Source: a virus (Duplodnaviria; Heunggongvirae; Uroviricota; Caudoviricetes). From it: a stretch of DNA of 64,000 nucleotides. Shown here one piece after another: positions 40,339-43,374 of the stretch. Numbering within the stretch: position 1 is the first letter of the stretch; each line of letters starts with the position of its first letter. Location of the stretch: the IMG/VR virus record IMGVR_UViG_2537561979_000003, one strand, 5' to 3'. The notes under the pieces were generated by a model. It did not search any database, had not been told where the DNA came from, and worked only from the letters and a program-made list of their open reading frames with translations. The position numbers and the translations under genes are program-made.

Positions 40339-40971
40339 TCACTCTCCTTTGATGCGAATGCCAGCGGCGCGGGGCACATTAACTTCCACGATGCGCACAG
40401 TTGGTTTGTACATCTCAATCGCAGTCAGCCAGTCAGCGCCAGTCATGCGCTTTTCTGCATCGCCATTAGTCCACTTAACCGGTACACCAATAGCCTTCAT
40501 CGCGATTTCTATTTCCCCGGCAATGGCGCTTTTTCCGCAACCAGTAAAACCAGATACAACGACCAGAACTTCACCTTTGGCTGGTTTTATTTCCCGCGCT
40601 TCCAGTTCTGCTATGCGCTTACTTCCATCCGAGATAACACCTTCGTAATACTCACGCTGCTCGTTGAGTTTTGATTTTGCTTCCTCAAGCTCAACTCTCA
40701 GCTTCCCTACCGTTAGAGCAATATCCTCGTTCTCCTGGTCACGGCGTTTGATGTATTGCTGGTTTCTTTCCCGTTCATCCAGTAGTGCCAGCACGGTTTC
40801 TGGTCCGGCCAGAAATTTGAAGGCGTTGAGCGCATCAATATCCACACCGTAATCTTTAAGTTCCTGTTCACTTAACAAATCATCATCAGCTGGCAACATT
40901 AACAGGCGTTCCATTGCTGGAATTGCACGTTCCGCCGCCTCACGCAGTGCCTGGTAATTAATTTCGCTCAC
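40339..40971 (-). CDS. hypothetical P-loop protein
   Basis: Walker A-like VVVSGFTGCGKSAIAGE in the C-terminal half; N-terminus MSEINYQALREAAERA shared with another ORF. Confidence 0.45.
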   Translation of the reverse strand: MSEINYQALREAAERAIPAMERLLMLPADDDLLSEQELKDYGVDIDALNAFKFLAGPETVLALLDERERNQQYIKRRDQENEDIALTVGKLRVELEEAKSKLNEQREYYEGVISDGSKRIAELEAREIKPAKGEVLVVVSGFTGCGKSAIAGEIEIAMKAIGVPVKWTNGDAEKRMTGADWLTAIEMYKPTVRIVEVNVPRAAGIRIKGE

Positions 40972-41639
40972 TGGTTGCCTCCTTTGCGAAGCTGTTCAGC
41001 AATACTTACGCATATCTCTGCGCCTCTAATCAGCCCCGGAACGTTCTTGTTTGGCCCAACTTCACCATCAACAAAATCAATCATCGCGTTACGAGCCATA
41101 TCCACCCCCTGCGCCCGAACTTCAGCCAGGAAAGCGTCGGTGGCTGGAATTTGCGGCATCCCTCCGTCTGTTGCGCAGATATACGCATCAGATATTTCAT
41201 CCTGCTGGCCATCAAACACGTAGCAACAGCCCCTGATAAACAGCTTCATTGAGGCATTCTCCACTGCCAGCGCCGTGCGATTACCATCCAGCTCTGCAAT
41301 ACGCTGTTTTGCGGCATCCAGTTCAATCGACAATTTTTCCAACTGCTCTTGATGCTTCTTGTATTCCTGATATGCGTGCCAAGACTGACCTTTGCGCACA
41401 CTATCAGTGATATCAGTAATCTGTTCTGGTGTTAGCGTGGCCAGTGGCTGTGATGGGAAAATAAGCACTTTCCCGGAATCCCAATCAAAACCAGCGTGAA
41501 TTGACTGAACCTCAACTGAAGGTGTTGAACCAATGCTGCCAGGCGAATGAACAACGATCGTTACATCCATATCGCGACGATGGCTGTGGTTGTTGGACAA
41601 AATACGATTCACCAACTCAGAAAATTTGGAAAATTTCAT
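40968..41639 (-). CDS. hypothetical protein (paralogue family A)
   Basis: Shares ...IPATDAFLAEVRAQG... and a C-terminal AEQLRKGGNQ-type tail with the ORF at 41923-42741. Confidence 0.45.
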   Translation of the reverse strand: MKFSKFSELVNRILSNNHSHRRDMDVTIVVHSPGSIGSTPSVEVQSIHAGFDWDSGKVLIFPSQPLATLTPEQITDITDSVRKGQSWHAYQEYKKHQEQLEKLSIELDAAKQRIAELDGNRTALAVENASMKLFIRGCCYVFDGQQDEISDAYICATDGGMPQIPATDAFLAEVRAQGVDMARNAMIDFVDGEVGPNKNVPGLIRGAEICVSIAEQLRKGGNQ

Positions 41640-41959
41640 GCTGATTCCCCTTTCTCTGCTCTCTCCTGTCGGAACATCACTATCATCAGGTCGCCTTTTG
41701 TCGCTATCCTGGCTGTTGTACCTGGTTCAATGCGGCTAAGCTCAAATGCGTCATAGAACGCTTCTAATGCCTTCTGGCGTAGTTCCTGTTTGCGCCGTTT
41801 TTTCCACTGTTTTAGGAAAATGGAACCCAGCCATCGCCATGTACGGGACATGATGTAAAGCCAACCGAGAAGTGCCAGACCGGTATTTAGGAGCGTATCG
41901 ATCGTTATTGTCGTGTCGATATTCACTGGCTGCTTCCTTTGCGAATCTGTTCCGCCCAT
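41636..41959 (-). CDS. hypothetical small membrane protein
   Basis: 107-aa ORF with a hydrophobic segment LLNTGLALLGWLYIM. Confidence 0.35.
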   Translation of the reverse strand: MGGTDSQRKQPVNIDTTITIDTLLNTGLALLGWLYIMSRTWRWLGSIFLKQWKKRRKQELRQKALEAFYDAFELSRIEPGTTARIATKGDLMIVMFRQERAEKGESA

Positions 41960-42741
41960 TCTTCAAGGGATTTCTCCGCATATTCACCAGACAGGCCATC
42001 AATCGGATGCGCTTCATTAGCCAACTCTTCTTTCGCTGACAAAATCATGCGTGTAACGTCGAAAACTTCACGCAAAGACTTATTGATAAATCCGTGATTG
42101 AACGCAGCAGCAAGACGGCTGGCGGTATAGTTAATCCCCTCGTTGCGTGCTTCCGCACGTACTTCAGCAAGGAAAGCATCGGTGGCTGGGGTTTCGACAT
42201 TAGGTCGAAGCTCATAATCACAAACTCTTTCAATCCATGGTGATACTCTGTCGCATTTCCTCTTCTTGCGTTCACCGACCTTGGTTGCCTGCTGAATAAT
42301 TACCCCCCAGCAAATGCTTTCGACCTCTTCGCTCCATCCATCGCAAGCATCGCCTCTATAGTCGTCAATTGCAGCCTCAGCAGCAGCGATAGCCTCCTCA
42401 GCAGTTTTGTGACACTCGAAACTAAATTCAGAGCCATATGAGAAATACATAGCCCCGGCCTTCAGTCTTGCATTCTCCGCTGCCAGCGCCGCGCACTTGG
42501 CCTCAAGAGCGGCAACCACTTCCTGATGGTCTTTGTACTTAACGTATGAGCCGGAGATGTCATCACCTTCGGTGTTTAGCCATGCGTCATTGCAATTCAC
42601 TGCGTAGGTTCTGATGCTCATGCTGATGCTCTCCCGCCCCTGACAGACGCCAGGCCAGTCAATAAAGTATCCGCAATGCCTACCCTCAGACGTGCGCGCA
42701 GGATAAATGCCGTTATGACCGGCAAAATATATGCTACCCAT
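41923..42741 (-). CDS. hypothetical protein (paralogue family A); 5' end possibly frameshifted
   Basis: C-terminal region paralogous to 40968-41639; an overlapping ORF (42618-42800) in another frame carries the MSKINYQELREAAEQA N-terminus. Confidence 0.4.
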   Translation of the reverse strand: MGSIYFAGHNGIYPARTSEGRHCGYFIDWPGVCQGRESISMSIRTYAVNCNDAWLNTEGDDISGSYVKYKDHQEVVAALEAKCAALAAENARLKAGAMYFSYGSEFSFECHKTAEEAIAAAEAAIDDYRGDACDGWSEEVESICWGVIIQQATKVGERKKRKCDRVSPWIERVCDYELRPNVETPATDAFLAEVRAEARNEGINYTASRLAAAFNHGFINKSLREVFDVTRMILSAKEELANEAHPIDGLSGEYAEKSLEEWAEQIRKGSSQ

Positions 42742-42786
42742 TCATCTTGCGTTGCCTGTTCCGCCGCCTCGCGCAGTTCTTGATAG

Positions 42787-43374
42787 TTAATTTTGCTCAC
42801 TGGTTGCCCCCTGAATACGCTTAAACTCGATTACCCACACCCAAGGATTAGCGTTCCAACTATCTTCGCCATAAATTGATTTCCATAGGCTACGGAAACC
42901 TGGGTAATGCTTATCGCCAATGAGGGTCGATTCTGTTGGTGCGCCCTCAGCCCTTGCATCGCATTCGCTGATATCGTTCAACCGCTCAACGCGCACGTTG
43001 GTAATTTCCAGAAGAATGCGCGATGCCCAGCGCGGCATGTGAATTGATGGCGTCCACTTTTCTGATACTGGTTTATTACAAACCTCGACCGGAACCCGGT
43101 GCGTTTGTTCTGTCCAGGAGTTACGCACGCTTGCGCGATAAACCAGCGTTGCGACGTCCGTCGCTTTGCCATGTACCCGGTAGGTTTCGCGAACCCAAAT
43201 ACGATCGCCCGGTTGACCATATGGACAATGCTTGGCAAGCAACTCTGCGGCCACTGCCCGTCCATAGAATTTTTCTTCAACAATCCTGCGAGTCTGTGTT
43301 TTATTCCCGCCAAGAATTGCCCGGACCATCTCATCGTTAAAAATCATGCCGCGCTCTTTCACTTCGCCTTTCAT
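42787..43374 (-). CDS. hypothetical protein
   Basis: 195-aa ORF. Confidence 0.45.
   Translation of the reverse strand: MKGEVKERGMIFNDEMVRAILGGNKTQTRRIVEEKFYGRAVAAELLAKHCPYGQPGDRIWVRETYRVHGKATDVATLVYRASVRNSWTEQTHRVPVEVCNKPVSEKWTPSIHMPRWASRILLEITNVRVERLNDISECDARAEGAPTESTLIGDKHYPGFRSLWKSIYGEDSWNANPWVWVIEFKRIQGATSEQN

Follow-up and report, generated by a model that had tools for sequence, protein, structure and literature searches.

Why do four neighbouring open reading frames (ORFs) of one virus share a start in one pair, an end in another and isolated blocks in between, and does one of them owe its shape to a frameshift? The question concerns genes A to F, all on the minus strand at positions 40339-43374 of a 64,000-nucleotide (nt) stretch of DNA, hereafter the window (IMG/VR record IMGVR_UViG_2537561979_000003; Caudoviricetes). 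The original prediction, made from the letters of the sequence, held that four of these ORFs are paralogues (A; B; E; and an ORF of 272 amino acids (aa) at 41923-42741, here gene D with a 5' extension), that the 272-aa ORF had lost its native N-terminus by a frameshift, and that the set had been shuffled by recombination. Our analysis indicates that the region is very probably an early operon of a P1-like phage-plasmid holding three mosaic Ead/Ea22 genes, one of them split by a deletion, with the shared blocks serving as crossover points. Mosaic Ead/Ea22 accessory genes are already known, and the split is real but ordinary for phage accessory regions. The coordinates of all features are collected in Table 1.

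Pairwise alignment at the nucleotide level, the check proposed together with the prediction, revealed similarity far beyond chance. The first 49 nt of A and E are 84% identical and 13 of their first 16 residues are the same (pairwise E-values of 8e-12 by blastn and 3e-6 by blastp), confirming the expected N-terminal block; with the 12 nt upstream of the GTG included, the match covers 61 nt at 85%. A degenerate 34-mer describing this block gave exactly two hits in the window, with 0 expected. The internal and C-terminal similarity expected between B and D was found as three collinear nucleotide blocks with identities of 88-92%, and no similarity between B and the 272-aa ORF was detected in the stretches separating them. 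Pairwise E-values across the shared blocks ranged from 1e-6 to 1e-12. At the profile level, A, B, D, and E all matched phrog_368 with E-values of 3e-9 to 2e-62; B, which bears the UniRef name Ead/Ea22-like, scored 1.7e-62. The four ORFs lie on the minus strand where the prediction had placed them, with one correction: the ATG taken as the start of the 272-aa ORF does not begin a gene.

The missing N-terminus of D was located in E. A conceptual fusion of the E N-terminus with the 272-aa ORF, used as a query, retrieved thousands of ead/Ea22-like proteins of 241-296 aa at 99-100% query coverage. Its closest matches, P0002 (290 aa) and P0113 (241 aa; 895 contigs), are intact relatives that read MSKINYQELREAAEQATQDEWVAYILP followed directly by GHNGIYPARTSEGRHCGYFIDWP and contain ...ATQDEWVAYILPGHNGIYPARTSEGRHCGYFIDWP... 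The window tracks these intact proteins in the frame of E as far as ...YILP and then, from GHNGIYP, in the frame of the 272-aa ORF. Its DNA is 98% identical to the P0002 gene (locus L003) over 42649-42811 and 97.7% identical to the P0113 loci over 42471-42812, and alignment to the relatives disclosed a single missing G, turning GCCGGGTC into GCCGGTC, with the rest near-identical. With the base restored, the Ead_Ea22 family (PF13935) matched continuously at 64 bits over profile positions 1-97, whereas E alone reached 35.7 bits over positions 1-28 only and the 272-aa ORF alone 16 bits. The single-base gap, the intact proteins spanning both ORFs, and the repaired 64-bit match therefore identify E and D as one former Ea22-like gene, and the predicted loss of the native N-terminus by frameshift is borne out. 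The ATG at 42741 is no real start codon: it has no Shine-Dalgarno (SD) sequence, and RefSeq leaves the extension 42622-42741 unannotated and starts the gene at 42621. Positions 42622-42718 are old frame left open, out of reach of ribosomes starting at 42800. The deletion site lies at the loop edge of a small inverted repeat, TGCCG-GTCATAA-CGGCA (42708-42724, minus strand).

A one-base difference in a short run of G could also reflect a sequencing or assembly error in a gene that is really intact, and the original prediction pointed to a possible homopolymer error at 42740-42800. The lesion is not there but at 42719-42720, the run is merely two bases long versus three, and the change is an inherited allele present in hundreds of independent assemblies. 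The identical 60-aa E product, recorded on 304 contigs (641 index blocks), recurs across many independent projects and technologies and makes up a PHROG family of its own, phrog_14804; the exact deleted 34-mer is present in seven IMG/VR contigs, and two independent complete plasmids match at 99.9-100%. We consider a read error extremely improbable. Next to no weight can be given to a programmed frameshift, in which ribosomal or transcriptional slippage would restore some full-length protein: the lesion does sit in a short G run beside the inverted repeat, but no slippery heptamer of the X XXY YYZ type occurs at 42715-42725 (UUG CCG GUC), two consecutive G are too few for transcriptional slippage, and 74 of the 81 IMG/VR copies are single-frame.

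In RefSeq, E is an ead/Ea22-like protein of 60 aa and D a hypothetical protein of 232 aa (D-short), joined by an ATGA overlap of the sort typical for this operon, and both are common in databases. The two could accordingly be taken as independent, genuine genes without any frameshift, the resemblance of E to Ea22 being just a shared short module. However, the DNA is near-identical to that of intact genes save for one base, the frame above ATG 42621 runs through 40 codons without a stop and its translation reproduces the residues of the intact proteins exactly, and the repaired protein is one continuous Pfam domain. The intact allele exceeds the split one by about 10 to 1, and the 60-aa tail is nearly invariant instead of divergent, which contradicts the split form as ancestral. 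Two separate genes are thus very improbable. For annotation this means that the 60-aa product, treated by RefSeq and PHROGs as a family in itself, and the 232-aa product, treated as unrelated, form the two halves of a single Ead/Ea22 gene and ought to be marked as such.

The deleted allele is widely distributed. The 90% cluster of the E product holds 41 variants, 40 of them exactly 60 aa; the exact 232-aa D-short product was found on 108 contigs, and exact matches to the intact 35-mer in 74 IMG/VR contigs. Differences among the E variants are almost confined to the first 14 residues and the last one. Since the out-of-frame tail is nearly invariant, a single, fairly recent deletion event that has spread since is suggested. 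The frameshifted head is followed by a 232-, 217-, or 137-aa ORF, all intact, and preceded by four different genes. It is present in P1-like plasmids (beside pmgS and pap) and in lambdoid prophages (beside recT and int), and intact P0113 likewise occurs in both P1-like plasmids and lambdoid chromosomal prophages (beside erf/recT, abc2, and int; loci L008, L009, and L011 versus L006, L007, and L010-L019). This distribution indicates recent gene flow between the two kinds of element. A membrane helix in the 60-aa tail was considered and rejected, its maximum Kyte-Doolittle 19-mer value being 1.57 and the stretch containing three arginines. Another family member, P0068 (288 aa), has some 50 internal residues (…WTALMDRKMQRTTLVMLPRSTQRLHWSCLVKLSAWRTQILMLCVEIAEL…) that resemble a second, compensated double frameshift in the same N-terminal domain.

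Ribosomes starting at GTG 42800 would read 33 out-of-frame codons and terminate at the TGA at 42618-42620. As ATGA, this stop codon shares bases with the ATG at 42619-42621, which is in frame with the old gene, and GGGAGAG lies 7 nt upstream. Because the overlap and the GGGAGAG resemble the operon's other junctions, the architecture favours termination followed by re-initiation. Re-initiation at 42621, which we hold to be somewhat more plausible than its absence, would yield a 232-aa protein without the Ea22 N-terminal domain. D-short matched phrog_614 (7e-53) and phrog_368 (2e-36), and the family includes natural proteins in which the same body follows an unrelated or very short head (P0085, P0084, and P0139, the last of 218 aa with a 30-aa head), which shows that an Ea22-like body can stand alone.

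The split gene could instead be a dead pseudogene, neither its 60-aa nor its 232-aa ORF being made or useful, that persists by hitch-hiking. Its status as a minority allele agrees with this, as do the nearly invariant tail, which speaks for a recent event, the dispensability of the accessory region (canonical P1 is without all these genes), and a 60-aa tail devoid of membrane-helix or domain signal. Yet the allele has entered at least three downstream and at least four upstream contexts, in plasmids and prophages, without further decay, and the 232-, 217-, and 137-aa ORFs are all intact. The ATGA overlap and GGGAGAG mimic the functional junctions of the operon, and members without the Ea22 head, for example P0139 and P0085, occur naturally. 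We regard the pseudogene as a real but lesser possibility.

The claim that the set had been shuffled by recombination between paralogues was upheld by natural chimeras and by breakpoints piled exactly on the shared blocks. Breakpoints were compared in 17 loci fetched through their proteins and then in about 100 loci including IMG/VR hits (Table 1). P0082 carries the B head on the D body, joined at ALAAENA, and P0085 a third head type on the D body. P0146 combines the N-terminus and middle of D with the C-terminus of B, the same combination as in the 217-aa products, where D switches to B exactly at PATDAFLAEVRA; the 137-aa products consist of the D head, 75 unique nt, and the B tail. In total, 115 family proteins displayed ten N-terminal, four middle, and two C-terminal segment types in 15 combinations. 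The boundary sequence upstream of the Ea22 N-terminal module was invariant in five loci with five different upstream genes. The four block types occurred in 7-21 nucleotide versions each, with few differing positions, among 8-29 distinct 30-nt flanks, and the blocks were conserved at fourfold-degenerate codon positions amid 18-29 different flanks. The last 14 nt of F, which overlap the start of E, contain the linker GGCAACCAGTGAGC, conserved despite its use in different reading frames by F and B. Such blocks probably act as crossover points for homologous recombination, so that heads, middles, and tails are exchanged both from one paralogue to another and across the divide separating P1-like plasmids from lambdoid prophages.

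These features recall the linker model proposed for mosaicism in lambdoid phages (Susskind & Botstein 1978; Clark et al. 2001 (HK620); summary in PMC3233612). The likeness lies in short conserved sequences at gene or domain borders between unrelated flanks, with breakpoints and chimeras on them. The locus differs in that several linkers are intragenic, at domain borders (ALAAENA and PATDAFLAEVRA), besides those at gene boundaries, and in that exchange crosses phage types, linking lambdoid prophages with Punavirus-like plasmids. The mainstream alternative explanation of phage mosaicism, likewise summarised in PMC3233612, is illegitimate recombination with selection for junctions at domain borders, the blocks being kept solely as protein motifs or ribosome-binding sites. 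The blocks do contain SD sequences and code for what could plausibly be structural elements, namely a heptad segment of a coiled coil and a helix. However, fourfold-degenerate sites are conserved where flanks are unrelated, the linker upstream of the GTG is conserved yet used in different frames by F and B, breakpoints fall inside the 25-36-nt blocks, beyond mere nearness to domain borders, and lambda retains the ea22 3' block without an adjacent downstream gene. We judge the motif-only alternative quite improbable, and the locus appears to fit the boundary-sequence (linker) model better than pure illegitimate recombination. It offers a clean, data-rich case of domain-level exchange at short linkers that bears on the debate over homologous versus illegitimate recombination.

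Several points weigh against an operon of functional, linker-shuffled Ea22 genes as described here. The deleted allele is young and in the minority (about 9% in IMG/VR), and it could be a neutral or slightly harmful change carried along by hitch-hiking where recombination is frequent. By our estimate, an ATGA overlap would arise by coincidence in about 1 in 12 random frameshifts. Re-initiation at 42621, like any function of the 60-aa or 232-aa product, is something that we infer, and the function of the proteins in a P1 background is argued by analogy. Block conservation could stem in part from constraint on the protein or on the SD site and not from selection for recombination. The loci in the breakpoint histogram were picked for the E-type N-terminal module, so that the peaks at 42812 and 42470 are exaggerated, and the clustering was judged from histogram counts and explicit crossovers rather than by a formal recombination test.

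Table 1. Features of the Ea22-like array and breakpoint counts from the locus comparison, with positions in the window.
Feature	Position	Strand	RefSeq annotation	Breakpoints	Description
Gene F	42787..43374	-	hypothetical		First gene of the operon; pmgT homologue, 99% to P7 Upf86.8, 47% to P1 PmgT
ORF E	42618..42800	-	ead/Ea22-like, 60 aa		Residues 1-27 authentic Ea22 N-terminus; 28-60 out-of-frame read-through past the deletion
One-base deletion site	42719..42720	-			Plus strand CC (minus GG) versus CCC (GGG) in intact relatives
5' extension of 272-aa ORF	42622..42741	-			Ancestral frame (GHNGIYPARTSEGRHCGYFIDWPGVCQGRESIS) from 42718 to lower coordinates, still open
D-short	41923..42621	-	hypothetical, 232 aa (WP_000027853.1)		Coiled-coil segment, middle and C-terminal domain
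Gene C	41636..41926	-	DUF4752		DUF4752 protein between B and D; Pfam PF15944, 1.7e-42
Gene B	40968..41639	-	hypothetical, 223 aa		Non-Ea22 N-terminal domain (phrog_6026), coiled coil, Ea22-family middle and C-terminal modules
Gene A	40339..40971	-	ead/Ea22-like, 210 aa		Complete Ea22 homologue: N-terminal domain, coiled coil, replaced C-terminal domain; ends AGIRIKGE, stop
Boundary sequence GG(A/G)GGCAACCA	42801..42812	-			Conserved; just upstream of the GTG of E; same before A (40972-40983)
Shared block 1, ALA(V/A)ENA	B 41254-41278; D 42470-42494	-			Coiled-coil segment; 25 nt, 92% identical
Shared block 2, PATDAFLAEVRA	B 41112-41147; D 42154-42189	-			36 nt, 89% identical
Shared block 3, AEQ(L/I)RKG..Q, stop	B 40968-41000; D 41923-41955	-			33 nt, 88% identical
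3' boundary block of A, AGIRIKGE, stop (..ATCAAAGGAGAGTGA)	40339..40373	-			Holds SD sequence for next gene (ATG 40337)
C-terminal module of A	40372..40575	-			About 70 aa; Walker A GFTGCGKS at 40528-40551
C1-repressor operator (ATTGCTCTAATAAATCT)	43553..43569	-			1 mismatch to consensus; directly after pap homologue, upstream of operon
Breakpoints	42800-42819			72	Linker and start of E
Breakpoints	42460-42479			65	ALAAENA block, D
Breakpoints	42140-42199			29	PATDAFLAEVRA block, D
Breakpoints	41920-41939			27	3' block of D
Breakpoints	41240-41259			14	ALAVENA block, B
Breakpoints	41100-41159			17	PATDAFLAEVRA block, B
Breakpoints	41000-41019			40	3' block of B
Breakpoints	40660-40679			26	Within the coiled coil of A
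Breakpoints	40340-40379			36	3' block of A

The 3.5 kb surrounding the array match Escherichia coli plasmid p88COLEC-1 (NZ_CP070907.1) at 100% identity and another plasmid at 99.9%, and patchy matches of 95-99% extend to hundreds of P1-like plasmids, P7, and lambdoid and Shiga toxin (Stx) phages. Homologues of P1/P7 pap (upstream) and pmgV flank the array. The P1 C1 operator consensus was matched 16 times (three or fewer mismatches) in the 64 kb against 0.26 expected, which confirms that P1-like phage-plasmid DNA, complete with its C1 regulon, makes up most of the window. The operator ahead of F lies at the place where P1 annotates OpmgT (Op88) with promoters and P7 annotates Op(hea). The minus strand from 38.6 to 43.6 kb would form the variable early operon of this phage-plasmid, predicted from the operator alone to be silent in the lysogen and expressed upon infection or induction.

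Besides the coding sequences of Table 1, RefSeq places three more genes downstream of A. Six of the eight gene junctions (38585-43374) are 4-nt ATGA or GTGA stop/start overlaps, the exceptions being a 14-nt overlap at F/E and a 1-nt gap between A and the next gene, and an AAGGAG-like SD sequence is found within the final codons of the upstream gene at each operon junction. Within block 3 of D (WAEQIRKGSSQ, stop) lies the SD sequence AAGGAAG, and the block and the start codon of gene C, a GTG, overlap as GTGA. Promoters and terminators inside the array did not exceed chance on the minus strand. Between the operator and F (43384-43520), a hydrophobic 28-aa peptide (MNTAFKIIMAAIYFWLFSITFGGIVAHG; ATG at 43470) is encoded by a small ORF that has a separate ribosome-binding site. 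A perfect 10-bp hairpin at 43498-43520 is accompanied by a T-run on the plus strand, as in a terminator facing the operon from the opposite direction.

Position after pap, operator, and a homologous first gene are shared with the pmgT-pmgU-pmgV operon of P1 and the 'hea' operon of P7 (Upf86.8 to Upf90.8), where Upf88.3 is an Ead-like protein. The number of Ea22-like genes behind Op88/OpmgT differs: none in canonical P1, one in P7 (upf88.3), and three in the window, together with the DUF4752 gene (DUF, domain of unknown function) and others. Nothing specific on Ea22 in P1-like phages came up in a literature search. Locus L020 (MH422554, 'Punavirus P1') holds unannotated Ea22-like genes, of the intact E+D type and the A type, in an annotation gap at about 2560-3400; a neighbouring gene labelled 'recombinational DNA repair protein RecT' is just 222 nt long.

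Ea22 proteins comprise an N-terminal domain, a central coiled coil, and a variable C-terminal domain (PMC10834534). Lambda Ea22 is early, tetrameric, and pro-lysogenic, and its C-terminal domain varies between phages (PMC7093339, PMC10834534). Gene A scored 130 bits against Ead_Ea22 and aligned end to end with lambda Ea22 (BLASTP 1e-51). The two proteins agree in about 97% of the coiled coil and in all of their last eight residues, but A carries an insertion in its N-terminal domain and a wholly different C-terminal domain. A single-sequence AlphaFold2 model of A displayed a continuous helix over residues 57-125, with a block-mean predicted local distance difference test (pLDDT) score of 92-94 over 71-100; only the helical part was resolved, the C-terminal domain having a pLDDT below 50. 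The PF13935 gathering cut-off of 27 bits was passed by A, E, the repaired E+D, P0002, and P0113; B gave no hit, and D-short and the 272-aa ORF stayed below the cut-off alone. B and D-short join the Ead/Ea22 family through phrog_368, and heptad-like sequence and weak coiled-coil Pfam hits point to a coiled coil in both.

With the family of lambda Ea22, P22 Ead, and Stx-phage Ea22, gene A shares the three-part architecture, the variable C-terminal domain, and the K/RGE ending. The location differs, being the exo-xis region under pL in lambdoid phages and the C1-operator Op88 operon in the P1-like plasmid. Also different from lambda are the three tandem copies, one of them split, and the C-terminal domain of A, a P-loop-like mini-module. 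Sequence searches of the PDB with A, B, and P0002 gave sub-threshold hits only, and no NCBIfam model matched any of the proteins. The PHROGs matches are all labelled 'unknown function', and B, C, D, F, and the downstream genes match only such PHROGs and Pfam DUFs. By analogy, the array proteins are most likely coiled-coil oligomers that would present exchangeable effector domains early after derepression; current knowledge of the roles of Ea22 proteins is unaffected by these results.

According to Dydecka et al. (PMC7093339), all Ea22 proteins end in K/RGE, a feature whose significance they left unexplained. A ends accordingly (...IRIKGE), unlike B (RKGGNQ) and D (RKGSSQ), which end in RKGxxQ. 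The last codons of A are AAA GGA GAG TGA, followed by one base and the ATG of the next gene, so that K/RGE corresponds to AAAGGAGAG; B and D close with CGC AAA GGA (RKG) in the same role for the next GTG. The ending thereby gains a simple candidate explanation, namely that it may be the ribosome-binding site (AAAGGAG) of the next gene. Lambda ea22 ends with the same block, GCTGGCATTCGCATCAAAGGAGAGTGA (L104, J02459 29847-29880), with no gene in the next 190 nt, and this 3' block looks like a linker relic.

One member of the set had been predicted to carry a Walker A motif, and GFTGCGKS, residues 141-148 of A, indeed fits GxxxxGK[ST] when read directly from the sequence. The GxTGxGKS pattern (G, T, G, G, K, and S) was invariant in 22 homologues 53-90% identical to A, and the module follows the pattern GEVLVxVSGxTGxGKSAxAGEIEI...W..G..EK..T.ADW...E.Y.P.V.I.E.N.P. 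An exhaustive search with a floor of 60% identity placed the module in 445 representative clusters (proteins P0286-P0432), C-terminal in most and N-terminal in some, in otherwise unrelated host proteins of up to 623 aa. As in P-loop nucleoside triphosphatases (NTPases), GFTGCGKS follows a hydrophobic would-be strand, and an invariant hydrophobic stretch with Glu (VRIVE) lies downstream. When A was assessed as a P-loop NTPase, neither a Walker B motif (hhhhD/E) nor the full alpha/beta fold was recognised by profile or structure. The module had no Pfam family and no significant fold match, and a Pfam scan of ten long module-carrying proteins for partner domains returned only a sub-threshold AAA_16 hit overlapping the module itself. 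This stretch of about 70 aa looks like an undescribed, widely shuffled mini-domain.

A bolder view, which seems to us rather unlikely, is that the Ea22 family could be a natural domain-shuffling system. Its nucleotide-conserved linkers, including the SD and stop/start junctions that would explain K/RGE, would be maintained because they let phage recombinases exchange heads, middles, and tails among paralogues and across P1-like and lambdoid elements, and the split allele would be kept through a re-initiated, head-less variant with altered activity. Separately, this view would make the GxTGxGKS module a new minimal nucleotide-binding effector domain.

Among the neighbouring genes, one of 293 aa (38944-39825) matched nine PHROGs, each across part of its length only. 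Its homologues in related loci carry DUF551 and range from 98 to 538 aa, and the gene appears to be mosaic like the Ea22-like genes.

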